Positions 2,520-46,171 of a stretch of 64,000 bases of DNA are shown here, piece by piece (position 1 is the first letter of the stretch; each line of letters begins with the position of its first letter). The stretch is from Candidatus Liptonbacteria bacterium. Lineage in GTDB: Bacteria; Patescibacteriota; Minisyncoccia; UBA6257; JACOXY01. The position numbers were made by a program, and so were the translations under genes. The stretch spans positions 3,794 through 67,793 of the forward strand of contig JACOXY010000011.1 in assembly GCA_016182095.1 (NCBI GenBank), given 5' to 3'. The notes under the pieces are model-generated. The model made no database searches. It worked only from the letters and a program-made list of their open reading frames with translations, and was not told the origin of the DNA.

Positions 2520-2540
2520 TCTGCAGAATGTTAGAATGTT
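2507..2540. repeat. Family-1 palindrome, copy B: perfect 34 bp palindrome aacattctaacattctgcagaatgttagaatgtt
   Basis: Perfect reverse-complement symmetry around a central ctgcag. It overlaps the stop of the ArsR-like gene and the annotated start of 1578..2519. Confidence 0.85.
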
Positions 2541-2797
2541 TGCATGAACTTAAAAAATGCTTTTCCGTAAGGAGAGAGCAGATGAGTTACCTCTCGGCCT
2601 CTGTATTTTTTATTTAAAAGACCAGCGTGAACAAGCGCGCGGGTGTGCTGGGAAATGGTTTTGAAGTTTCCGCCAAGTTTTTCCGTAATTTCAAAAACCG
2701 TGATTCCTTCATGTTTGTGAACGATATCAAGAATTGCAATGCGCCAGTGATTTGCCGCGCCTTTGAAATATCGCTCTAATTGCTTTGGTGTTTTCAT
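2531..2797 (-). CDS. ArsR/SmtB-family winged-helix transcriptional regulator
   Basis: HWRIAILDIV...ITVFEITEKLGGNFKTISQHTRALVHAGLL matches the ArsR helix-turn-helix and wing. The gene is flanked on both sides by Family-1 palindromes. Confidence 0.65.
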   Translation of the reverse strand: MKTPKQLERYFKGAANHWRIAILDIVHKHEGITVFEITEKLGGNFKTISQHTRALVHAGLLNKKYRGREVTHLLSPYGKAFFKFMQTF

Positions 2798-2858: not shown

Positions 2859-4079
2859 TTATATAAACAATTTTGAATATTCTGCGAGCTGACGCTCAAA
2901 AGTGTAGTTTTCTTGGATAAGTTTTTTTTCGGCATCACCCATAACTTTTCTTTTATTTTTATCTTTCATGAGGCTGACGACTTCTTTAGCAAATTCTTGA
3001 GGATTATCTCGCACCACAAAATGTTCGGCGTCTTTAGCTCCAGTGATTCCTTCGGCGCCTACGGCAGTTGTTACGACCGCCGTACCAGTTGCCATAGATT
3101 CTAATACCTTGTTTTGCACCCCAGCTCCAATACGCATTGGAGCAACAGAAACGGCAGCTTTTTCCAATTCGTATTTAACATCGGGTACGTCTGCGTTTAC
3201 TTTTATATCATATTTACCATTAAGCCCCATTATATATGCCGTTGGGCTAGAGCCAACAATCTCAAAGCTTGTCTCGGGTGCTTCCTTTTTTATATAAGGG
3301 CAATAAATTTCTTCAACAAAATATCGCACCGCATCCTCGTTTTGGTGGGTTCTTAAGTTGCCTTCAAAAATAATGAGATTGGGATCACGCTCTTTTTCTT
3401 CTGTGATTAGAAAATTCTCCATAACTCCATTTCCCATTACTTTGAGCTTGCCTTTATATCTATTTTTTGTATTTCTGTTAAGATATTCGGCGTCTATCCG
3501 AGAAACTACCACGCCAGCATCAAACTTTTCCAAACACTGCTTTTCGTATTCGCGCACACGGCCTTCTTCAATTTTGTAGATTAGTCCCATAAGTCCGCGG
3601 CTGCCTTGTTCGCGACTCCGTTTGTAGTTTAAAGATATAGCGTCCGTAAGCTCAATAACTTTGGTAATGCTTCGACTCCGCTCAGCACCTACGGCATACG
3701 GCGCCATACGGATAAGGTGCGCCAAAATACCACCATACGAAGCGTTAGCGAGCGTGTCGTTTATCAAGCGCTGCATTTTTCTGGAATGATAATAGCTCAC
3801 CTGTAGCGGCTTGCGGCTAAAAAATCCAAGCGCGGCGTTAAGATATGACTGCCACCACGGGAGCCAAACAGTAACCACCTTTGAAAATACGTCATCGCGC
3901 TGAATCGTTTTTTCTTGCCCATCCTCAGTGAAAGAAAGCAGGGTCAAATTAAACCCCGCGCGTTTTAGCTCTTTGCAAACATGATAGATGCGCAGTTTAT
4001 CGCCACCAATAACAGGATAGGGATAGCGGGATGTGAGAACTAGAAGTTTCTTCATAAAAACATTAAAACATGCAAACAA
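2859..4079 (-). CDS. glycosyltransferase family 4 (GT-B, group 1)
   Basis: The C-terminal GT1 region ...FVEEIYCPYIKKEAPETSFEIVGSSP...MRIGAGVQNKVLESMATGTAVVTT... is typical of Glycos_transf_1. Confidence 0.8.
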   Translation of the reverse strand: MFACFNVFMKKLLVLTSRYPYPVIGGDKLRIYHVCKELKRAGFNLTLLSFTEDGQEKTIQRDDVFSKVVTVWLPWWQSYLNAALGFFSRKPLQVSYYHSRKMQRLINDTLANASYGGILAHLIRMAPYAVGAERSRSITKVIELTDAISLNYKRSREQGSRGLMGLIYKIEEGRVREYEKQCLEKFDAGVVVSRIDAEYLNRNTKNRYKGKLKVMGNGVMENFLITEEKERDPNLIIFEGNLRTHQNEDAVRYFVEEIYCPYIKKEAPETSFEIVGSSPTAYIMGLNGKYDIKVNADVPDVKYELEKAAVSVAPMRIGAGVQNKVLESMATGTAVVTTAVGAEGITGAKDAEHFVVRDNPQEFAKEVVSLMKDKNKRKVMGDAEKKLIQENYTFERQLAEYSKLFI

Positions 4080-5139: not shown

Positions 5140-5373
5140 TTATTTTCCAAGCCATTCGTTCTTAGGAATTCCAGATTGCGCAATAATTCCTTTTAGAGTT
5201 CTGGGTTTCAACGCTCGCGCACCGTGAAAAGGCACGCTAACCTGCCGAAAAATGCCGCCGTATTTACCAACATAATAAAAATGGCTGCCGCGTGTATGAT
5301 TGTGCACAAAGCCACGATCTTTCAAAAAGCGCACAGCATCTTCGGCAGTCCAATTGTATAAACCACGCGGCAT
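5140..5373 (-). CDS. hicA: HicA-family toxin (mRNA interferase, YcfA-like)
   Basis: 77 aa with AEDAVRFLKDRGF...TRGSHFYY...VPFHGARALKPRTLKGIIAQSGI, which matches the HicA/YcfA fold signature. Confidence 0.7.
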   Translation of the reverse strand: MPRGLYNWTAEDAVRFLKDRGFVHNHTRGSHFYYVGKYGGIFRQVSVPFHGARALKPRTLKGIIAQSGIPKNEWLGK

Positions 5374-5382
5374 AAAACCTTA

Positions 5383-5709
5383 TTATGTTCTTAGCCGCGC
5401 AAGATTCAGCTCGCCAACCGTAAAAATATCTTTTAAGGTTCTCTTCTGGGCTTTTGCTTCGTGTCCAGAACGCCAGAGATTCTCATACTCTTTGTCGGAT
5501 TTTTGGTTTAAAATGTTTGGTCTTGCCTTAACTTTCTTGGCTGACTCCACATAACCCTCAACTGCTTCAAAAAGCAGAAGCATCGCCTCCTGCGGCGTAG
5601 TTCCAGATTCTATAATATTAAACTCCAATCCAACTGCGTACCAATCGGTACCATCCTTAAAAACCACATATCGCACCATGCCTTTTTGTAAGGTATTTTT
5701 ATATTTCAT
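5383..5709 (-). CDS. hicB: HicB-family antitoxin (UPF0150-like N-terminal domain)
   Basis: YVVFKDGTDWYAVGLEFNIIESGTTPQEAMLLLFEAVEGYVE matches the HicB N-terminal domain. The gene sits immediately upstream of hicA on the same strand. Confidence 0.6.
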   Translation of the reverse strand: MKYKNTLQKGMVRYVVFKDGTDWYAVGLEFNIIESGTTPQEAMLLLFEAVEGYVESAKKVKARPNILNQKSDKEYENLWRSGHEAKAQKRTLKDIFTVGELNLARLRT

Positions 5710-6146: not shown

Positions 6147-8024
6147 TTAGATTTCTCTAACTAATATAAAATTTTCCAAAACCAACACATCCATCTTAGT
6201 CCTTAAAAAACAATCTATCGCTTCCTGTGGTTTATTTACAATCGGTTCATTTTCGTTAAAGGAGGTATTGAGCAAAATCGGCACGCCGGTAATCTGCCTA
6301 AAGGCGTCAATGAGCTGCCAGTAAAGAGGATTTTCTTTTTTGGACACGGTCTGTAGGCGCCCCGTACCGTCGGCATGCGTTACTGCGGGAATTTTCGCGC
6401 GCATTTCCGGTTTTATGGTATAAACTTTTTCCATAAAAGGCACTGCTGGAAAACCAATTTGGAGAGGTCGTACCTCCCCTGGAGGAACGACCTCCGCACC
6501 GCGCGGATCCAAAAAGTAGTCGCTAACATATTCCTCTAAAATTGATGGCGCAAACGGGCGAAAGCTTTCCCGTTTTTTTATTTTCAAATTTAAAATATCC
6601 TTCATGTCCGGCCGCGCAGGATTCGCAAGGATACTCCTATTCCCTAAAGCGCGCGGACCCCATTCGGTGCGCCCCTGAAACCAACCAACAATTTTGCCTT
6701 CCGCAAGCAGTTGCGCTGTTTTTTGTATAAGCATAGTTTCACCCAACTCCTGGACATCGCAAGTCCTAAGGACTTGCGATGTCCTTATATTGGCATCCAA
6801 AATGCTTTTAATTTCGCCATTATGATATTCCGGTCCCCAATAGGAGTGGACCATCGTAAAATTGCGTTCTTTATTCAAAATCTGATTCCAAACGTAAAAT
6901 GCCGCGCCTAAAGCTCCTCCGGCATCGTAGCCGGCTGGCTGAATAAAAACTTCTTTAAACGGAGAGTTTTTGAATATCTGACCGTTTGCCAAACTATTCT
7001 GCGCGGTACCTCCGGCAAAACAAAGATTTGTGCTCCTCGTTTCCTTGTGGAGTTTGTTAAGCAGAGCAAAAAAAACTTCTTCGTATATCGCCTGCGCGGA
7101 GGCGGCAATGTCTTTGTGCTTTTGGGTAAGCTCTGCGCTCTCTTCTCTGCTCGGCCCCAAAAGATCTTCTAACTTATTTGAGTAAAGCTTAGATAATTCC
7201 GGATATCCGCCCTCCCATGCCATTTTTACCTCGCCTTTTGCATGTAAAAAATATTCTTGGCTCAATTCAAAGATACCAGCGGCAGCGCTTCGACTTTGCT
7301 CAGCGGCTAAATTGTTAGCTCCTAAGCCCGTCGCAGAACTTCCCCTGTCTAGTTTTATACGCACAATTTCGCGCATTTCTTTCAGATATTTCGGCTTTCC
7401 AAAAGCCGCGAGCCCCATGACCTTATATTCATCGCCAAATTTCCAAAATCCCAAGAATTGTGTAATCGCAGTGTAAAAAAAACCGATAGAATCCGGATAA
7501 TTAATCTCTCCTAAAATTTTCATCTTATTTCCTTCGCCAACCCCCCACATAGCGCTTGAAAAATCTCCCATACCGTCAACCGAGAGAAGTGCCGCTTCCT
7601 CAAAGGGGGAAACAAAAAACGCGGAGGCAAGATGCGCAAGGTGATGCGAGATATTATAAAACTTAGCGCTAATCTGCGACTCCTTAATACCCAAAGCTTT
7701 GGCGAGTTCTTCCTTAACACCGACAACCTTGCGCTTATTTACAAATCTATTCCAAAGAGAGCGGAAACTTGGAAGGTTTTTCAACACAAACCAGATTTTT
7801 TTCCAATAGTTAGCCTTCGGGTCGCGATTCAAGGCAATATGCGAAACATCTTGAATGCGAATCCCGGCAAAATCCAAACAAAACTTAATAGACTCGCTAG
7901 GGAATCCGGCCCAATGCTTTACACGTCTAATACGCTCCTCTTCAATGGCAGCGACGAGCTTGCCATCTTTTATCAAACACGCGGCGGAATCGGCATGATA
8001 GGCGTTTATGCCAAGTACGTACAT
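6147..8024 (-). CDS. O-carbamoyltransferase (NodU/CmcH/NovN family)
   Basis: N-terminus MYVLGINAYHADSAACL..., then WGPRALGNRSILANP, NTSFNENEPIV and AVTHADGTGRLQTV, all hallmark blocks of CmcH_NodU carbamoyltransferases. Confidence 0.85.
   Translation of the reverse strand: MYVLGINAYHADSAACLIKDGKLVAAIEEERIRRVKHWAGFPSESIKFCLDFAGIRIQDVSHIALNRDPKANYWKKIWFVLKNLPSFRSLWNRFVNKRKVVGVKEELAKALGIKESQISAKFYNISHHLAHLASAFFVSPFEEAALLSVDGMGDFSSAMWGVGEGNKMKILGEINYPDSIGFFYTAITQFLGFWKFGDEYKVMGLAAFGKPKYLKEMREIVRIKLDRGSSATGLGANNLAAEQSRSAAAGIFELSQEYFLHAKGEVKMAWEGGYPELSKLYSNKLEDLLGPSREESAELTQKHKDIAASAQAIYEEVFFALLNKLHKETRSTNLCFAGGTAQNSLANGQIFKNSPFKEVFIQPAGYDAGGALGAAFYVWNQILNKERNFTMVHSYWGPEYHNGEIKSILDANIRTSQVLRTCDVQELGETMLIQKTAQLLAEGKIVGWFQGRTEWGPRALGNRSILANPARPDMKDILNLKIKKRESFRPFAPSILEEYVSDYFLDPRGAEVVPPGEVRPLQIGFPAVPFMEKVYTIKPEMRAKIPAVTHADGTGRLQTVSKKENPLYWQLIDAFRQITGVPILLNTSFNENEPIVNKPQEAIDCFLRTKMDVLVLENFILVREI
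6752..6784. repeat. Family-2 palindrome, copy 1 (16 bp arms), in-frame inside the carbamoyltransferase CDS
   Basis: ggacatcgcaagtcct-a-aggacttgcgatgtcc. A near-identical 34 bp copy lies intergenic at 45354..45387. Confidence 0.75.
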
Positions 8025-8030
8025 AATAAA

Positions 8031-8058
8031 TAGGGTTTAGGGTTTAGGGTTTAGGGTT
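8031..8058. repeat. (TTTAGGG)4 heptamer microsatellite spanning the stop codon of the GT2 gene
   Basis: tagggtttagggtttagggtttagggtt. It encodes the C-terminal ...TLNPKP* of 8037..8897 and ends 6 bp before the next gene's ATG. Confidence 0.85.
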
Positions 8059-8897
8059 CTCTTCTTTAGCTCATATATCTTAGAGTCGACTAAAAATCTG
8101 TACCAAAATCCCTGAAGGGTGTGCCATATTAACCCCGGTATACCGTCCAAGAATCCTAAACGAATAAAATAACGATATTTAAAGTATAGAAGAGCCCTCA
8201 AAAATGGAGGTAATTTATAATAAAAATTTTCCTTGTACCATCGCTTTTTTTCGGGATCAGAACCATGCCTGTCTGCCTTTATTGTTGTATTGTTCTGTTG
8301 TTCTGTTGTTTGAAGGTAAGCCTCCGCCTCCCTGGTCGCGTATTTATTGTGCTTTTCTATCCAAACAGACAAATTTTTCCTGTCATGTTCCTCAAAATCA
8401 TTTTGTAAATTAATAGTTTTCCCGCTAGATAAAATTACATGCTCATCCATCTCTCGTTCCTCATAACGGCCAGCATCTCTCCTCCAGAGACGCAAAAACC
8501 AAGCCGGATAATATCCGCCATGTTTAATCCACCTATTCATAAAGTAAACTCTCCTTTTTAAATAAAACCCCGTTGTTTCTCTTGTTAATTTGTTAAATTG
8601 TTCATTGATTTCATTCCATGTTTCGGGGAGCATTATCTCGTCCGCGTCCAAGCGCAAGATCCAGTCATTTTTAATAGCAACAGTGTCGAGTGCCCAGTTA
8701 AACTGCTCGGCCTGGTTTACGAACCTTCTCTGATGTACCTTGTCGGTATATTTTTTAACAATTTCCAGGGTTTTGTCGCGGCTCATGGAATCAACCACTA
8801 TAATCTCATCTACCCAATCGGCAATACTTTGCAGGCAGTTTTCAATATTTAGCTCTTCGTTGTAAGTAAGGATTATGGCGCTAATTGGCAATTTCAT
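8037..8897 (-). CDS. glycosyltransferase family 2 (LPS-core-type, WaaE/KdtX-like)
   Basis: AIILTYNEELNIENCL...VVDSMSRDKT...RLDADE carries the GT2 DxD motif and fold signature. Confidence 0.75.
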   Translation of the reverse strand: MKLPISAIILTYNEELNIENCLQSIADWVDEIIVVDSMSRDKTLEIVKKYTDKVHQRRFVNQAEQFNWALDTVAIKNDWILRLDADEIMLPETWNEINEQFNKLTRETTGFYLKRRVYFMNRWIKHGGYYPAWFLRLWRRDAGRYEEREMDEHVILSSGKTINLQNDFEEHDRKNLSVWIEKHNKYATREAEAYLQTTEQQNNTTIKADRHGSDPEKKRWYKENFYYKLPPFLRALLYFKYRYFIRLGFLDGIPGLIWHTLQGFWYRFLVDSKIYELKKRTLNPKP

Positions 8898-9609: not shown

Positions 9610-10812
9610 TCATACAAGCTCATTGTACGCCGCAAGCCACTTTTTAGCTATATTGGGCCAAGAGTATTTTTCTTCTACTAATTTTCTGCCTCGCTCGCCC
9701 AAAGCCTTCCTTAAATCGTCATCGCGTAAGAGACCTAAAATTGCCTTGGCCAATTGCTCCTCGTTTTTTTCTATCACAATTCCAGCTTTTGCTTCTCTCA
9801 CATCGGGCGTGATGCCAACTCCTTCTGTTATCACAACTGGCACGCTCCGCGCCATCGCCTCAACCACGGAGCCGCCAAAGTTTTCGGAATATGAGGGCAT
9901 AACAAACATGTCGGCGCTTTGATAGGCCGCGGCCTTATCTTCCCCGCGCAAATCTCCGGTAAAAATCACGCTGTTAGTTGGCAGTTGGTGATGAGTAGTG
10001 AGTAGTTGGATTTCCTTTTTGTAGCCCTCATCATCACCCCCAACAATTACCAAAACTAAATTGTTCTCTTGTTCTATTGTTCTATTGTTTTCTTGTCGAA
10101 CAACTTCCGCAAAGGCAGGAATTAAAGTGTCAAAGCCTTTTTTCCAGTTTAACCGCCCAAGCGAGAGCACAATTTTGGCGTTCCCGGGAATATTAAATTT
10201 TATTCTAAATTCACTCTTTAATTCCTCATTACTGTTTACTAATTTCTTTTCCATTTCCACTCCATTGGCGATCACAATCGCCTTATTTAGCGGCAATCCT
10301 AATTTTAGATACTCCTCTTTTTCCAGCTCGGTCGTAAAGTGGATCGCTGAAGCTCCCGACAAATTCTTTTTTTCTATTAAACTGATATATAACTTTTTCT
10401 TGAAACTACTTTTCTTTTCTATGAGTTCCGTGATTAAACTACCGCGTGGAGAAATAATGTACGGCTTATTAAATCTTTTAGCGTACTTGGCGCCAAAATA
10501 AGAAGCGGAAAGGAAAACAGAGGTAATGTGGATAATATCAAAATCTTTCAGTGAATCACGCAGCGCTAAACGCAAGTCTCGAGAATAGAACCAGGAACGC
10601 AAAAATCGCGACGCCTTAAAATAATAAATTTTAACGCCATCGATAATATCGGTTTTTGTCTGCAAATCATCTCCGCCATCAATATTGGTTGTATAAACAG
10701 TTACTTCGGCGCCTTCTTTCGCTACCCATTTATTCAGCCCATGAACGCTCTTAATCGGACCACCGTAGCGGTAAGCCGGAAGATAAGTTGGGACTATATG
10801 GAGAATCTTCAT
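9610..10812 (-). CDS. glycosyltransferase family 4; start reassigned to the MKILHIV ATG at 10812
   Basis: MKILHIVPTYLPAYRYGGP is a canonical GT4 N-terminus, and the C-terminus has ...FVMPSYSENFGGSVVEAMARSVPVV... The track's TTG start at 10854 adds an atypical 14 aa. Confidence 0.8.
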   Translation of the reverse strand: MKILHIVPTYLPAYRYGGPIKSVHGLNKWVAKEGAEVTVYTTNIDGGDDLQTKTDIIDGVKIYYFKASRFLRSWFYSRDLRLALRDSLKDFDIIHITSVFLSASYFGAKYAKRFNKPYIISPRGSLITELIEKKSSFKKKLYISLIEKKNLSGASAIHFTTELEKEEYLKLGLPLNKAIVIANGVEMEKKLVNSNEELKSEFRIKFNIPGNAKIVLSLGRLNWKKGFDTLIPAFAEVVRQENNRTIEQENNLVLVIVGGDDEGYKKEIQLLTTHHQLPTNSVIFTGDLRGEDKAAAYQSADMFVMPSYSENFGGSVVEAMARSVPVVITEGVGITPDVREAKAGIVIEKNEEQLAKAILGLLRDDDLRKALGERGRKLVEEKYSWPNIAKKWLAAYNELV

Positions 10813-10940: not shown

Positions 10941-11213
10941 ATGATTAAGCATGAAGTTGTGAACGGCTTTGAAGACGTGAGGCATCTTAAAGCAGTAATC
11001 ATTACAGAGCCGCCGTGGATCTTTCCGGAGCTTTATGGCATTGTGCAAAATAGCGACAAAAGCCCGCGCTTCTCTGATGTTCTTGCCAAACTTGAAATTA
11101 AGCCCTTGGAATTTATTGAGTTAATAGACGATAAGTTTAATGGGAGGCCGCACTACAAGTTACAGATTGGCATCACGGCAGTGGGGCATAAGTTAGCGAT
11201 TATCGCCTGCTAA
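10941..11213 (+). CDS. hypothetical protein (91 aa), start at the ATG with SD
   Basis: ggggg SD 7 nt upstream of the ATG at 10941; the track's TTG at 10881 is less likely. No motifs. Confidence 0.35.
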   Translation: MIKHEVVNGFEDVRHLKAVIITEPPWIFPELYGIVQNSDKSPRFSDVLAKLEIKPLEFIELIDDKFNGRPHYKLQIGITAVGHKLAIIAC

Positions 11214-27132: not shown

Positions 27133-28125
27133 TTAAGCGAAGCGCACAATTTGTCCGGTTTTAGCCGATTCTTTAGCCTTTTCCATAAACCTTACCAACT
27201 GTATGGCATGATCATCCAGGGCCAAAAATCTGTTACTATGATCCCCTTTTTGTATCGCTTCGACCACTCCTTCAAAAACCTTGTCATGATTAGACATCGA
27301 GCCTTTATAGGTTCCGTAGTCATTAGCTCCGGCGCCCTCCTCCAATTCATAAGTCGGAACTCCATTTACTTGGAATTGTTCAATGGTATTCAAATATTCT
27401 CCGCCGATTTTTACAGTGCCTTCCGTACCGATAAGCGTAATTGAGCCCTCAAAATTTTTATGGGTAGCACAGGTCGTATAGTTAAACGATCCGATAGCGC
27501 CATTAGCAAATTCCACTGCTATAACTCCGGCATCTTCTGTTTCAATTTTCTGTTTAAATGTGCCCATCAAAGCGTAAACCGATTTGGGCGGCCCCATAAA
27601 TTCAAGCATTAGATCGACAAAGTGGCTTGCCTGCGTAAAGAGCGCTCCGCCATCCAAAAGATGGGTTCCACGCCAAGCGTCAGCCTTATAATAATCTTCA
27701 CCCCTATTCCAAAACTAGCGATTTTGCTTTACCACATAGAGAAACTTTTGATTACGATAGGCGGCGTCAATCATGGCGCGGGCATCCTTCTCGGTAAACG
27801 CCATGGGCTTTTCACAGAGTACGTGCTTTTTGGCATTTAAGGCGGCTATGGAGTGCTCAGGGTGCAGACCTGAAGGAGTACAAATGTTTATAAGGTCGAT
27901 TGAATCATCTTTAACTAAATCTTCGGCATTGTAATAAGCTTTAACGCCTTGGTATTTTTTTACGATCGCATCGACGCGATCAGAAACAAGGTCACAAACC
28001 GCCACTAATTTAGCCCCATTTACATTTTGGAGTTTTTCCGCGTGCCTAGACCCTATTTTCCCGCATCCCAAGATAGCAAATTTAACCTCGTTCATTGTGA
28101 GTTCATAATACAGCATTTTTGCCAA
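27133..28125 (-). pseudogene. Gfo/Idh/MocA-family oxidoreductase interrupted by a single in-frame TAG (27715..27717)
   Basis: The N-terminal Rossmann part (27715..28125, FAILGCGKIGSRHA...) and the C-terminal part (27133..27657) are in the same frame, separated only by an amber codon: ...VVKQNR*FWNRGEDYYKADAWRGTHLLDGGALF... Confidence 0.55.
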
Positions 28126-32440: not shown

Positions 32441-32818
32441 CTAAGATCTGCTCTTCCCGCTCTTTTCAATAATTGATCCGAAAATTCTCATAAGTTCTTC
32501 AGCTTCATTGGTGAGAACTACGCACTCTTGCTCAAGGGTAACAACATTGCCCGTGTCAAGCAACCGAAGCCAAGATCGACTTTCTTTGGCTTCTTTCCTG
32601 CAGATTTTTATTCTGTGCATACCGTCTTTTTTACTCAATGTCTCGACAAACTCTATAAAATTGGCATGCGTTGAGCCAGAGGAGCGCGCGAGCTGCTTCC
32701 CATCTTCTATGTTTCCAATAGTTCTTGGTAATTCTTTGACGAGAACACGGCATCGTTTCGCAAATAAAAAAGTTCTTTCTTCAAGATTATATGGTTTTGA
32801 GTTTTGAGTTTCCGGCAT
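32441..32818 (-). CDS. four-helix-bundle protein (23S rRNA intervening-sequence protein family, TIGR02436)
   Basis: ERTFLFAKRCRVLVKELP...ARSSGSTHANFIEFVE...KICRKEAKESRSWLRLL matches the family consensus. Confidence 0.6.
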   Translation of the reverse strand: MPETQNSKPYNLEERTFLFAKRCRVLVKELPRTIGNIEDGKQLARSSGSTHANFIEFVETLSKKDGMHRIKICRKEAKESRSWLRLLDTGNVVTLEQECVVLTNEAEELMRIFGSIIEKSGKSRS

Positions 32819-32849: not shown

Positions 32850-34274
32850 TTAGAGTTTGTTGATGTAACTTTTTACATCAACCACATACATCTGTCGGCT
32901 ACCGTCATGCACCGAATCAAAACAAATTTGAGTACCATCACGATTCCAGCGCGGATGAAGATCGGAGCGCATTTCGCTTATATCCCACGGCTCAACGCGG
33001 CCATCGGGCAGCGTATTTGTTTTTAAGCCAGAGGGCAAGGAATGGAACTTACCAATCTCTATTTTTTTTCCGGTTATCCAATTATAAAGAATAAGCGCGC
33101 GATAATGATTTTTGTCCGGGTATGTATCTGTTATAACCCAATTTCCGTCGTATGAAAATTGCGGGTGGCCGTCTTCGGTCATTAAACCCACCGCGATACG
33201 CCTTACTTTTTCAGATTTATCATGCAACAAGAAATAACTTTGACCCGCAATTTTTTGCTTTAAACTGCCGCGCAGTAATCTCACCAATCGCAGGAGAGGC
33301 TTAAATAAAGGATTATTTAAAATTCCAATTCTTCGCAGAGCCACCGCTTGAGGACTCCATTTCCCGTAAGCTAAAATTTCCGCGTCATTACGCCAACCAA
33401 AGTGAGAAATGTGGCCCGGCAAAACGTAAATATCGCCGCCATCTGGATTCGCTGTTACAAACCGCTGCATAGATCCGCCATCGGGTAATAAGAACTTGTC
33501 GACAAAACAGATTCGCGTGCCGGATGGATTAAAGTTAACATGAGTGAGATAGTGATGCTCATTTTCTCGTGGAAAGTTATTGAGATGCGCAACATCGTGA
33601 ATAGAAATTGCTAATTTAACTTCTCCGGTCTCCAAATCAATCCGAAAAATACCGTCATCTTTAGGAAACGGCTCCTCAAGATTTAGAGTTTCGGATTTAG
33701 AGTTTAGAGTTTGATAGGCATAACCATAACCTCCATATTTTTTTAGGCGAGCAAAGTTAAGGCCCAGAGCAAACTTTCCGTTCGGACTAACCGCGTAAAT
33801 CGGGGCGGGTAGCACTTTTTTTTCGCCAGTTTCTACATCCAATATCACGGAGACAAACCGCTCTCCCTGCCTATCATTGTAGATACACTTTCTTACAATA
33901 TTGGGGTTTCGGATGTCCAACCCGGACCCATCAATATTTGGGACATCCGAAGCAACGCCACCAGGCAGCCACTGCAATCGTGAACCTTGATGAAAATTCC
34001 ATGCATTGGTCTCTGCCAATGCTACCAATGACATTTGACCATTAACATTTGACCCCGAATCAAAACCTTTGGTTTTTGACGGGGCAAGCATATCTATCAA
34101 ACAAATACGCGCGGTATCCGAAGCGGTGGGAGGACGATATATAAAATCAACTTCTTCGGCAAGTAAAAATCTGCCTGATGCATCCCACGGACACAAATCG
34201 TGAAAACCAAAGAAGTGATGTTTTGGCCCAACGGTTACACCTTTTATTGGGAACTTGGAAATAAGATTTGGCAC
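32850..34274 (-). CDS. beta-propeller (TolB/PD40-like) domain protein
   Basis: Repeated ...SPNGKF..., ...NPDGGDIYVL..., ...HPRWNRDGTQICFDS...DGSRQMYVVDV blocks typical of PD40-type propeller blades; low specificity. Confidence 0.4.
   Translation of the reverse strand: MPNLISKFPIKGVTVGPKHHFFGFHDLCPWDASGRFLLAEEVDFIYRPPTASDTARICLIDMLAPSKTKGFDSGSNVNGQMSLVALAETNAWNFHQGSRLQWLPGGVASDVPNIDGSGLDIRNPNIVRKCIYNDRQGERFVSVILDVETGEKKVLPAPIYAVSPNGKFALGLNFARLKKYGGYGYAYQTLNSKSETLNLEEPFPKDDGIFRIDLETGEVKLAISIHDVAHLNNFPRENEHHYLTHVNFNPSGTRICFVDKFLLPDGGSMQRFVTANPDGGDIYVLPGHISHFGWRNDAEILAYGKWSPQAVALRRIGILNNPLFKPLLRLVRLLRGSLKQKIAGQSYFLLHDKSEKVRRIAVGLMTEDGHPQFSYDGNWVITDTYPDKNHYRALILYNWITGKKIEIGKFHSLPSGLKTNTLPDGRVEPWDISEMRSDLHPRWNRDGTQICFDSVHDGSRQMYVVDVKSYINKL
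33680..33713. repeat. TTTAGAG/TTTAGGA heptamer cluster inside the propeller CDS (encodes ...QTLNSKSETLNLEE...)
   Basis: atttagagtttcggatttagagtttagagttt is the same heptamer family as the intergenic leader motif and the (TTTAGGG)4 repeat. Confidence 0.6.
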
Positions 34275-44320: not shown

Positions 44321-45259
44321 TCAGATTAAACCCTCGGCTTTTAAAAGCATCTCCAACCCTCCTCTTAAAGTAACTTTCGGCCGCCAGTCCAAATCCTGCA
44401 TAATTTTGTTGTCGTCCCCCACCAAGCGGTTACGCTCAAGGTCTCCCCGCGAACGGCTCTCTTCGGAGATAAATTCTACTTCTCTTCCGGCATTCTTTAA
44501 AAGATCTTTTATAATATCGGTAACTTCTTGGATGGAATTCACGGCATTAGCGCCAACATTATAAATAGCCCCCGGCGTGCCGCGCGCGAGAAGTAGCGCG
44601 AGAACGTCCGCAACTTCCGTAACATAGATAAAGTCCCTTTCAGGAAAAAGATTGCCGAGTTTTATGCTATTAACGCCCGATTTCAACTGCGAAACAATTT
44701 CCGGAATTACCTGGGGAATTCCGGCAAATGGCCCATAAATACTAAATGGCCGCAAAATAAAATAAGTCATCCCATTTTTTTCACACTCTTCCCGCGCCGC
44801 CCCCTCTCCTTCTAACTTGCTTTTGCCATAAACTTCAAAGGGTTCGGTGGGGTGGGTTTCTTTTATGGGCTCGTCCGATGGCCTGTATACGGAAGAGGTT
44901 GAGATATGTATAAATCGCGGCTTGTCTTGAAGTCTAGCGGCGGCATGAATAACGTTTTTCGCTCCGAGAACGTTAACGGCAAATGCCTTTTGGGGATCTC
45001 TGTTGCAGTCCGGTATAAAGTGAAGCGCGGCCAAAAAATAAACGGCGCCCGGCTTAATCTCATCTGTAAAGTTTTTTACCGCCTCCATATCGCGCACATC
45101 TCCCCGCTTAATCACTATCTTATCTTTCATGTCCTCTAAGTTAGACATTCTGCCGGTTGAAAAATCATCAAAAACCGCCACCGAATGTCCTTCATTTAAT
45201 AATTTCCTTGCAAGATTATTTCCCACAAAACCAGCGCCGCCGAAGAGTAAGGTCGTCAT
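44321..45259 (-). CDS. NAD-dependent NDP-sugar epimerase/reductase (SDR)
   Basis: MTTLLFGGAGFVGNNLARKLL...YGKSK... are classic extended-SDR motifs. Confidence 0.7.
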   Translation of the reverse strand: MTTLLFGGAGFVGNNLARKLLNEGHSVAVFDDFSTGRMSNLEDMKDKIVIKRGDVRDMEAVKNFTDEIKPGAVYFLAALHFIPDCNRDPQKAFAVNVLGAKNVIHAAARLQDKPRFIHISTSSVYRPSDEPIKETHPTEPFEVYGKSKLEGEGAAREECEKNGMTYFILRPFSIYGPFAGIPQVIPEIVSQLKSGVNSIKLGNLFPERDFIYVTEVADVLALLLARGTPGAIYNVGANAVNSIQEVTDIIKDLLKNAGREVEFISEESRSRGDLERNRLVGDDNKIMQDLDWRPKVTLRGGLEMLLKAEGLI

Positions 45260-45353
45260 AATATTTTGATTTTACCTCCTGGAAATATGGAAGTCAAAAT
45301 ACTGGCACACAAAAAAGCCGCTCCAGATGCTGTGCGGAAGCCGCTTCACATAA

Positions 45354-45387
45354 GGACATCGCAAGTCCTTAAGGACTTGCGATGTCC
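45354..45387. repeat. Family-2 palindrome, copy 2: perfect 34 bp palindrome ggacatcgcaagtccttaaggacttgcgatgtcc (intergenic)
   Basis: Perfect palindrome whose arms are identical to the copy at 6752..6784 inside the carbamoyltransferase CDS. Confidence 0.8.
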
Positions 45388-45445
45388 AGAATGTTCCGGT
45401 ATTTTTATGACGCCCTTCGAACAGTCTCAATCCTTATTTTCCAGT

Positions 45446-46171
45446 TTATGAAAAAAATTCGTGAGCGGAAGCATAGCGCTCCGGTGTGCCGATATCCAAG
45501 AATTTTCCGTCAAATATAAATCCAGTAGCCCTCCCGGCCAACCTGGGAAAAACGTCTCGTTCTAAAGAAAACTTTTCGTTGTCGGGAAAATACTTTGCAA
45601 TTTTTTTGTTCATAACATAACAGCCGGCATTTACAAAACTATCCGTCTTCTCCTTATTTTTCTCCGCAAAGGCAGTCATTTCTCCGCTCCGCGCCAATGT
45701 CACGTTTCCACAATCGGCTCTCCCGTTTTTTTCTGCAAGTGCCAGAGAAAGGGGGGGCTGTTTTTTTAGATAATTTTCATAAAACTTTTGAAAATCTAAT
45801 TTAGGAAACGTATCACCATTTATGACAAAAAAGTGCTTGCTTTTTACGCAGGGCAAGGCAAGCTTCACCGCCCCCCCTGTATCCAGGGGCGACTCTTCCT
45901 TAGAAAAAACAAATTCGGCCTCTTGCGCATAGCGGCTTTTTTTAAAATATCTCTCTATGTGCTCCCCCATGTGTCCAGTGCAAAAGATAATCCGGCGAAA
46001 GCCCTGCCGCAGGAGTTCCTTCACCACAAGCGCGAGAAACGGCTTTTTGCCTAATTCCGCCATTGGTTTTGGTCGATCTGAAATAACCGGCCGGAGCCGA
46101 GTGCCTAATCCGCCGCACAAAATCAAAATATCAATGTTATTAAGCAAGTTGAGGGTGCTTTTTCTGCTCAT
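45446..46171 (-). CDS. sugar-1-phosphate nucleotidyltransferase (HddC/ManC-like)
   Basis: ILCGGLGTRLRPV...KPM is the canonical NTP_transferase loop. It lies adjacent to a GHMP kinase and contains two intact G/C7 homopolymer tracts. Confidence 0.7.
   Translation of the reverse strand: MSRKSTLNLLNNIDILILCGGLGTRLRPVISDRPKPMAELGKKPFLALVVKELLRQGFRRIIFCTGHMGEHIERYFKKSRYAQEAEFVFSKEESPLDTGGAVKLALPCVKSKHFFVINGDTFPKLDFQKFYENYLKKQPPLSLALAEKNGRADCGNVTLARSGEMTAFAEKNKEKTDSFVNAGCYVMNKKIAKYFPDNEKFSLERDVFPRLAGRATGFIFDGKFLDIGTPERYASAHEFFS

Follow-up and report, generated by a model that had tools for sequence, protein, structure and literature searches.

Rickettsia is the textbook case of selfish palindromes residing in protein genes. 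The Rickettsia palindromic elements (RPEs) are ~100 to 150 bp in length, and each family encodes one conserved peptide in one reading frame, as far as the original work is recounted in a later article (Ogata et al. 2000/2002 via PMC10969869). In the portrait drawn there, RPEs are hairpin repeats found in frame in unrelated housekeeping or metabolic genes of the small genomes of host-dependent bacteria, where the protein is apparently not destroyed and several families coexist. The same habit is now seen in an unrelated lineage with reduced genomes, the Patescibacteria. The element in question is a 33-bp palindrome (copy 1) lying in frame within a carbamoyltransferase gene on a stretch of 64,000 nucleotides (nt) of a Candidatus Liptonbacteria genome (contig JACOXY010000011.1 of assembly GCA_016182095.1; the whole stretch is referred to below as the window), which carries a second, intergenic copy (copy 2) as well. 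We consider it probable that this palindrome is a copy of a miniature hairpin repeat that is dispersed and non-autonomous, is REPIN-, RPE-, or SDR-like, and resides in Patescibacteria-type sequences. A preliminary description of the window had called these palindromes RPE-like. The comparison holds for the in-frame, dispersed habit, as palindromic insertions into protein genes, absent from homologs, were found; it does not hold for size or for a single conserved peptide, since the core measures 31 to 36 bp, ~3- to 5-fold smaller than an RPE, and is read in three frames (TSQV..TCDV, HRKS.GLAMS, and DIASP.DLRC). These results suggest that tiny hairpin repeats have a general route to reshaping proteins in small genomes, the present elements being several times smaller and usable in any frame, and they offer a concrete source for some of the lineage-specific insertions in Patescibacteria proteins.

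Two other described systems resemble the element in design. REPINs are composed of two inverted short imperfect palindromes that form either one long hairpin or two small ones (the "clover"; Fig. S11 of PMC3116915), and their spacer is less conserved than their arms, compensatory changes occur, and new copies insert in or beside existing ones (PMC3116915). An inverted doublet of short imperfect palindromes, a less conserved spacer, and the duality of long hairpin and clover are all present in our element. REPINs are longer, almost strictly extragenic, present at hundreds per genome, and accompanied by an adjoining RAYT gene (PMC3116915). In contrast, at least 7 of the 31 known copies of our element lie in genuine coding sequences, its density is low (2 per 64 kb), the stem internal to each arm is only 4 bp, and no RAYT (Y1/HUH transposase) was found among 40 open reading frames (ORFs) of the window or by tblastn of 309 kb with Y1 transposase sequences. 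REPs, moreover, carry a conserved 5′ GTAG-type tetranucleotide. The small dispersed repeats (SDRs) of Nostoc and other cyanobacteria, treated by Elhai et al. in 2008, are reportedly 21 to 27 nt in length and tied to HIP1 and heptamer-array contexts; their families are said to be little alike in sequence and to share one predicted fold, with compensatory changes and nested insertions. They have reportedly been proposed as the smallest mobile elements, by a mechanism unknown, and in-frame coding copies are said not to be their hallmark. Our element shares with the SDRs the size class and the existence of families of unrelated sequence that possess one fold with compensatory change. Full-text literature searches yielded no description of palindromic repeats, or of MITE-like repeats (MITE, miniature inverted-repeat transposable element), in Patescibacteria.

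Copy 1 can be read as GGACATCGCAAGTCCT-A-AGGACTTGCGATGTCC (16 + 1 + 16 bases), and the minus strand of this region, which is the coding strand, reads ...DANIRTSQVLRTCDVQELG... (also given as IRTSQVLRTCDVQ). Sequence and ORF reading confirmed the earlier proposal that the palindrome keeps the frame of its gene and encodes ...SQVLRTCDVQ.... As single-stranded DNA, the whole unit folds strongly (−18.4 kcal/mol; z = −10.8), whereas a single arm folds weakly (−1.3 kcal/mol). When the 64-kb window was searched with the 15-nt arm at a tolerance of up to 3 mismatches, only four matches were obtained, namely the arms of copies 1 and 2, and this number was reached in none of 100 shuffles of the window. 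The occurrence of the two copies is not due to chance. Altogether, the window contains these two focal copies and one copy of a sister family (Table 1).

The carbamoyltransferase hosting copy 1 is identical to an NCBI protein from a Candidatus Liptonbacteria metagenome-assembled genome (MAG; 134-kb contig), matches the solved O-carbamoyltransferases NovN, GdmN, and TobZ with E values of 1e-68 to 1e-86, and exceeds most homologs in length by ~40 to 50 amino acids (aa), owing to several lineage-specific inserts. The preliminary description had raised the possibility that the residues encoded by the palindrome are conserved throughout the enzyme family, in which case the palindrome would not be an insertion. 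We found that the site corresponds to an 8-column gap in all 15 aligned homologs (60 to 80% identity) and that the TSQV/TCDV motif occurs in only 1 of 120 homologs, the window's own protein; the insertion therefore stands. A codon alignment with a syntenic relative, L030, which shares 74% nucleotide identity across the gene, revealed 8 additional codons in the window at this site (...GCC AAT ATA A[GG ACA ... GTC C]AG GAG TTG... in the window and ...AAA AAC AAT TTA GCG TAT CGT TTT CTG... in L030). Once the 33-nt core is taken out, the window is three codons shorter than L030 here, so the event was either a gain of 33 nt with a loss of ~9 nt or the replacement of native codons by a longer unit. 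These alignments are best explained if copy 1 entered the gene, adding 8 codons net, after the gene had split from the closest relatives that have been sequenced.

A structural model of the enzyme generated with AlphaFold2 (AF2) has a mean predicted local distance difference test score (pLDDT) of 72.9 and reaches 84 to 89 (10-residue block means) over the insert at residues 414 to 424. In this model, helix 402-420 is extended by residues of the first arm, and strand 423-426 is formed by the second-arm residues CDVQ. Thus, the residues encoded by copy 1 are predicted to fold into the protein, as a longer helix and, where the C-terminal domain begins, an edge strand. Two other lineage-specific inserts of the enzyme (residues 227 to 248 and 514 to 532) showed pLDDT values below 50. 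As a side observation, the lineage-specific insert around residues ~226 to 250, RGSSATGLGANNLAAEQSRSAAAG at window positions 7277 to 7349 (pLDDT < 50), contains no detectable palindrome, and the same site is occupied by unrelated inserts in the relatives P0002 to P0007.

That the sequence belongs to a dispersed family and is carried in frame by other genes too, as the preliminary description had supposed, was borne out by a scan of sequence collections in which the inner 22 bases (11 nt per arm) had to match exactly around a free centre of 0 to 8 nt. The core was recovered at 29 further loci, namely on 2 Patescibacteria-type MAG contigs among 185,579 representative genomes (L001, from Yanofskybacteria, and L002, from an unclassified "bacterium" MAG) and on 27 metagenome contigs; a viral source was sought in IMG/VR, and the core had no match there. 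By chance, ~0.3 matches would be expected in the 596-Gb genome collection, an estimate that assumes uniform base composition. All three reading frames are used by the coding copies, and their hosts are mostly surface-glycan enzymes (Table 1). Among the intergenic copies, the one at L007 lies 6 nt past a transketolase gene and 11 nt ahead of a pfkB gene, and that at L005 lies upstream of uvrB.

Because the inner arms were fixed by the scan, comparison across loci is informative solely for the outer bases of the arms, for the centre, and for the flanks. The centres are highly diverse (TAA, TTAA, CAC, CAA, CGTG, TTAG, TCGA, CCGG, TTATAA, and others), and the outer arm bases vary only symmetrically, as GGAC/GTCC, GAC/GTC, AAC/GTT (five independent loci), or GATATC/GATATC (once). 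Reading of the sequence further showed that the arms are free of stop codons in all six frames. Among copies ending in GGAC or GAC, one flank, termed the A side, is strongly conserved as core-TTA-(T/A/G)-ATT-(G/A), with three positions identical in 14 of 14 copies, a count that is partly circular as the copies were oriented by the same flank. The B-side flank is looser (AATATT-Y-K-core). Since the conserved A flank is one-sided, the element has an orientation. Judged from these sequences, its anatomy is that of two inverted 15-nt arms, each a mini-hairpin with a 4-bp stem, around a free centre of 3 to 6 nt. In the orthologous pair L008 and L021, an identical 31-mer was considered as a sign of conservation and set aside, as local identity is 93% and the identity of the 31-mer is not significant.

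The preliminary description had also reported a perfect 34-bp intergenic version of the palindrome, which we confirmed as copy 2. It sits in a 186-bp gap that separates an NTP_transferase gene from an epimerase gene, and it lies within a larger, nested palindrome whose outer inverted repeat is CTGTTCGAAG...CTTCCGCACAG (also given as CTGTTCGGAA...TTCCGAACAG), separated by 31 nt and 18 nt from the 11-nt inner segments of the arms. As RNA, this long form folds with z = −5.1. The same architecture was found in L024 (positions 1217 to 1311), and the outer motif is present on one side only at four further loci. Thus, the 33/34-bp unit described earlier stands as a core, and the size assigned to the unit does not: with its oriented, conserved flank the element spans ~50 nt, and the long form spans ~95 nt. 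In L016 (positions 214 to 323), the spacer that separates core and outer repeat of a long-form copy carries an extra single arm, CAATATTTT-GGACATCGGATGTC, which is possibly a nested or partial insertion.

The evolution of the element at one site can be followed in a GT4 glycosyltransferase. A loop of this enzyme reads GW-LYEDIFKEANRSNYREQ-IIFT in most of 120 homologs, and palindrome-coded peptides occupy it in a Yanofskybacteria clade. We compared the DNA of six orthologs that are 73 to 77% identical in protein. Perfect focal arms are present in L011. An A-to-T change in arm 1 is paired with a T-to-A change in arm 2 in L042 and L043, where pairing amounts to 14/14 and 13/14, respectively. In L044 the arms are 12 nt long around a remodelled centre, and in L045 the palindrome has decayed, with 9/13 positions paired. 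The sixth ortholog, L001, possesses a different palindrome together with a remnant of the focal right arm: at positions 3380 to 3450 of this locus lie three tandem 18-nt units (GTSDVC / WTSDVV / NSCDVG), comprising a GACATCNGATGTC palindrome and the remnant, an arrangement which points to one element having overwritten another or nested in it. Peptides encoded at the same loop in other orthologs are TSDV..TSDV, RLRLNLN..FNLN, and TSNV..TFDV. These states indicated that the element can persist for long, evolve with compensation, decay, and be overwritten. Separately, a PF05635 gene (a four-helix bundle of the 23S-rRNA-intervening-sequence type) lies directly upstream of a GT4 gene in two other Patescibacteria-type contigs, L042 (579 to 983) and L044 (57 to 425); such a gene is also present in the window at 32441 to 32818, with an A+T-rich palindrome beside it at 32857 to 32884.

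Palindromes of this kind extend beyond the focal sequence. In 254 kb (the window plus non-redundant loci), 65 palindromes that are not strongly A+T-rich were counted, and shuffle controls, run on an earlier 194-kb set, gave 0 to 3. Further families include GAGGTCGTACCTCC-CCT-GGAGGAACGACCTC; GAGATCGGATCTCC, GAGACCGCATCTCC, and GGACATCGGATGTCC; and GACATCTGATGTC and TGAGGTTAAACCTCA, and they occupy other sites of homologous genes. One of them, CCAACTCCCGGTGTT-N11-AACACCGGGAGTTGG, which encodes TPGV...TPGV, occurs twice in the carbamoyltransferase gene of L030, the closest relative (10679 to 10719 and 11140 to 11176), at two different insertion sites. When the arms were aligned across families, the pattern GA[CG][AG][TC]CG-N-A-N-[GC]TCC emerged, in which GAC..GTC is swapped for GAG..CTC; this swap indicates that each arm forms a mini-hairpin by itself. 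An arm-internal stem of at least 4 bp was found in 7 of 34 families, whereas in 1,000 trials with shuffled arms the number averaged 0.8 and never exceeded 6. At one of the two insertion sites of L030, the relative L040 has a ~150-nt composite of decayed GGACATCGGATCTC-type units.

The GAGGTCGTACCTCC-CCT-GGAGGAACGACCTC family is represented in the window, by a palindrome in the very gene that hosts copy 1, and recurs in L015, L018, L023, and L025; AF2 places the residues encoded at 6464 to 6494 in a low-confidence loop. This palindrome is a better second example of in-frame insertion than the one put forward in the preliminary description, which had credited another palindrome type, Family-1, with an in-frame coding copy. 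We found no Family-1 copy inside a long coding sequence. Instead, the palindromes at 2507 to 2540 and 2824 to 2857 flank an 88-aa MarR/ArsR-like helix-turn-helix (HTH) gene (2531 to 2797, minus strand), and by their placement they look like operator sites of the HTH regulator. Family-1 comprises AACATTCTAACATTCTG|CAGAATGTTAGAATGTT and variants; a third copy, at 938 to 1018, has a 35-nt spacer, and the Family-1 motif AGAATGTT also directly follows copy 2 (45388 to 45395).

On the strength of the shared fold, we tentatively propose, with more doubt than conviction, that the focal palindrome and its relatives (the GAGATCGGATCTCC, GACATCNGATGTC, TGAGGTTAAACCTCA, and CCAACTCCCGGTGTTGG types) may constitute an undescribed class of ~31- to 50-nt "double-hairpin" mobile elements of Patescibacteria. 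Such elements would be recognised via their fold by some enzyme and would donate in-frame cassettes of 10 to 17 residues to surface-glycan enzymes, and their intergenic copies would double as orientation-dependent transcript-end signals. If true, they would be among the smallest mobile DNAs and would explain part of the protein insertions typical of Patescibacteria.

How could a dispersed repeat of this size have spread? Most likely, a folded single-stranded hairpin would be mobilised non-autonomously by an enzyme whose gene lies elsewhere, as has been put forward for REPIN/RAYT and IS200/IS605. The passage of surface-glycan gene clusters from lineage to lineage by horizontal transfer may aid the process, and hairpin-templated correction, selection on the hairpin, or the two together could maintain the perfect pairing of the arms. 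Copy 2 would then be a fuller, intergenic copy, oriented so as to provide a terminator-like end for the transcript of the upstream gene. Copy 1 would survive inside its gene because 33 nt keep the frame, because the arms lack stop codons in all six frames, and because its terminator-like side faces away from transcription.

Several points weigh against this account. A Pfam scan of the 40 window ORFs revealed no transposase, and tblastn of the 309 kb with IS200 and IS608 TnpA sequences gave no match, both being weak negatives; no insertion sequence was noticed in the loci carrying the core. Neither an empty-site allele nor a target-site duplication was found, so transposition itself is not demonstrated: the nearest carbamoyltransferase is only 74% identical, the palindromes are present in every Logan contig of this strain, and the two flanks of the core differ systematically and contain no direct repeat. 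Copies are sparse, at 2 per 64 kb in the window and with the exact core in 2 of ~185,000 representative genomes, and the invariance of the arms across loci is partly by construction, given the exact match required of the inner 11 nt of each arm. The element in the GT4 loop looks old and vertically inherited, which fits a retained structural site equally well, and the conservation of identical codons in its arms (4/7, versus 54/219 elsewhere; p = 0.07) is suggestive only.

A different explanation is that the hairpin is mainly a selected functional site, i.e., an intrinsic terminator, an mRNA-end stabiliser, a recognition hairpin for an RNase or another protein, or a site acting at the DNA level, which has spread with recombining gene clusters and whose coding copies are tolerated by-products. 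We think it unlikely as the principal explanation, yet worth serious weight, and the two readings, mobile repeat and selected site, do not exclude each other. Orientation, which also enters the case for a mobile repeat, speaks in its favour. The A side lies downstream with respect to transcription in all 6 intergenic copies with identifiable neighbours (copy 2, L005, L006, L007, L017, and L024), whereas it lies upstream in all 4 coding copies that could be oriented (copy 1, L029, L019, and L001), a split with p of ~0.005 in Fisher's test. From this we infer that the terminator-like orientation would not be tolerated inside genes. Likewise, several intergenic copies lie 6 to 26 nt after a stop codon or 10 to 27 nt before the next start, an identical sequence occurs in different lineages, and the GT4 series contains a compensatory pair and perfect or near-perfect pairing in 4 of its 6 orthologs in spite of their divergence in protein.

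The element does resemble intrinsic terminators and terminator-like dispersed repeats, of which SPRITE of S. pneumoniae is an example (PMC10969869), in that a G+C-containing stem-loop is followed by a U-rich tail and the intergenic copies are oriented with the flanking genes. Intergenic transcripts would carry the hairpin and then a UUAUAUUG-like sequence; at copy 2, the transcript of the upstream gene would carry the hairpin followed by UUAUGUG. At copy 1, it is the plus strand, antisense to the host gene, that presents the hairpin with its A-side tail in terminator-like order, and a scan for the terminator consensus flagged copy 1 solely on that strand; of the other loci, L024 was flagged on the sense strand, and at L007 both strands were flagged. 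The differences from SPRITE and intrinsic terminators are that the tail is a poor U-tract and that the same element sits inside genes in the opposite orientation. A selected site is further disfavoured by several observations: a terminator has no reason to lie within seven different coding sequences, the U-tract (UUAUAUUG) is weak and copy 2 fails the T-run rule of the terminator scan, a sequence-specific site has no need of many unrelated families that share only a fold, and the codon-level conservation test was not significant. Nor did a matching family emerge from Rfam 15, which gave only noise both at the gathering score over the whole window and at a relaxed threshold around copy 2.

Could each palindrome instead have arisen locally and independently, with neither a family nor mobility, through template switching (fold-back synthesis) or because a short palindromic motif was duplicated in tandem, over 18 nt? 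Mutation by quasi-palindrome correction is well established, the near-palindromic arms make each unit an approximate 18-nt direct repeat, and the three tandem 18-nt units in the glycosyltransferase gene of L001 fit such an origin. We nevertheless regard it as very improbable, for one and the same pair of arms (30 nt), often accompanied by an identical 8-nt flank, recurs at ~25 non-homologous loci in different genes and lineages, and the comparison with L030 shows no relation between the arm sequence and the native sequence of the site.

A number of other candidates were considered and rejected. The arms resemble a tRNA anticodon stem-loop (4-bp stem, 7-nt loop, and U33/A37-like positions), but the window contains no tRNA gene and nothing supports a tRNA origin. 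An integron attC, a dif/lox-type site, a CRISPR repeat, a DNA-uptake sequence, and a parS/matS-type site were all ruled out on anatomy, since a tyrosine recombinase site would need a longer spacer, arrays are absent, no lone arm occurs in the window, and the sites arise by insertion and not by point mutation. A promoter in the A side was discounted as its TTGCGA and TATATT motifs are merely 6 nt apart. A classical MITE, defined by terminal inverted repeats and a target-site duplication, does not agree with systematically different flanks that lack a direct repeat.

The palindromes are real sequence. Four other sequencing runs yielded Logan contigs that match the window with 100% identity, and every one of these contigs ends inside copy 2; a contig from one of the four runs starts inside copy 1. 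Independent assemblies that end or start within the palindromes indicate that the palindromes are present in the reads, and such breaks are expected of k-mer assemblers at perfect palindromes. It also follows that perfect palindromes of ~33 bp, by breaking k-mer assemblies, leave the genomes of these bacteria fragmented in metagenomes and are themselves under-counted. We give hardly any credence to an artefact of assembly or library preparation or to a coding motif that is native to the enzyme family and conserved in it: chimeric inverted joins can yield palindromes, and NovN, a distant homolog, possesses a segment of comparable length at the position of copy 1, but the palindromes recur across independent runs and across assemblies from JGI, ENA, NCBI, and Logan and lie in frame in long, well-conserved genes, and a native motif is at odds with three different reading frames across hosts and with its absence from 119 of 120 homologs.

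Table 1. Positions of the focal palindromes and neighbouring genes in the window, and coding copies of the core with their hosts and encoded peptides
Feature	Locus	Position	Strand	Description
Copy 1 core	Window	6752..6784		GGACATCGCAAGTCC-TAA-GGACTTGCGATGTCC; in frame in the carbamoyltransferase gene, residues 414-424
A-side flank of copy 1	Window	6785..6792	+	TTATATTG; conserved; perfect fit to the family consensus TTA-D-ATT-G
B-side flank of copy 1	Window	6744..6751	+	CAACTCCT; weak; family consensus AATATT-Y-K; element or target sequence
Host gene of copy 1	Window	6147..8024	-	NodU/CmcH/TobZ-type O-carbamoyltransferase, 625 aa (Carbam_trans_N/C)
Sister-family palindrome	Window	6464..6494		GAGGTCGTACCTCC-CCT-GGAGGAACGACCTC, one mismatch; same gene, in frame, encodes AEVVPPGEVRPL, absent from homologs
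Copy 2 core	Window	45354..45387		GGACATCGCAAGTCC-TTAA-GGACTTGCGATGTCC, perfect 34-nt palindrome with TTAA centre; intergenic
Long form around copy 2	Window	45330..45424	-	Nested palindrome of ~95 nt; the minus strand, which is transcribed, has the order B side, core, A side
Gene upstream of copy 2	Window	45446..46171	-	NTP_transferase; stop codon 21 nt before the long-form element
Gene downstream of copy 2	Window	44321..45259	-	NAD-dependent epimerase/dehydratase
Coding copy	Window (copy 1)			Carbamoyltransferase; RTSQVLRTCDV
Coding copy	L011			GT4 glycosyltransferase; TSQV..TCDV
Coding copy	L029			GT4 glycosyltransferase; TSQV..TCDV
Coding copy	L013			GT2 glycosyltransferase; HRKS..TCDV
Coding copy	L002			AsnB-like amidotransferase; GHRKSLGLAMS
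Coding copy	L001			DUF4012 protein; TSQV..TCDV
Coding copy	L019			ORF without Pfam match; DIASP..DLRC

A few features of the window lie outside the family. Next to the carbamoyltransferase gene, within the glycan cluster, are a HicA toxin gene (5140 to 5373) and an ORF without a Pfam match in the usual antitoxin position (5383 to 5709); the equivalent place holds a nucleotidyltransferase gene in L030 and L040, and a HEPN gene as well in L030. A GFO_IDH_MocA oxidoreductase gene (27133 to 28125) is split by one in-frame TAG (...VVKQNR*FWNRGEDYY...), which could reflect a pseudogene, a sequencing error, or recoding. Finally, four perfect TAGGGTT heptamers (CCCTAAA on the coding strand, plant-telomere-like) at 8031 to 8058 span the stop codon of a GT2 gene (8037 to 8897), and two of the three Logan contigs carrying this gene end just past the heptamer array, the third ending inside it.

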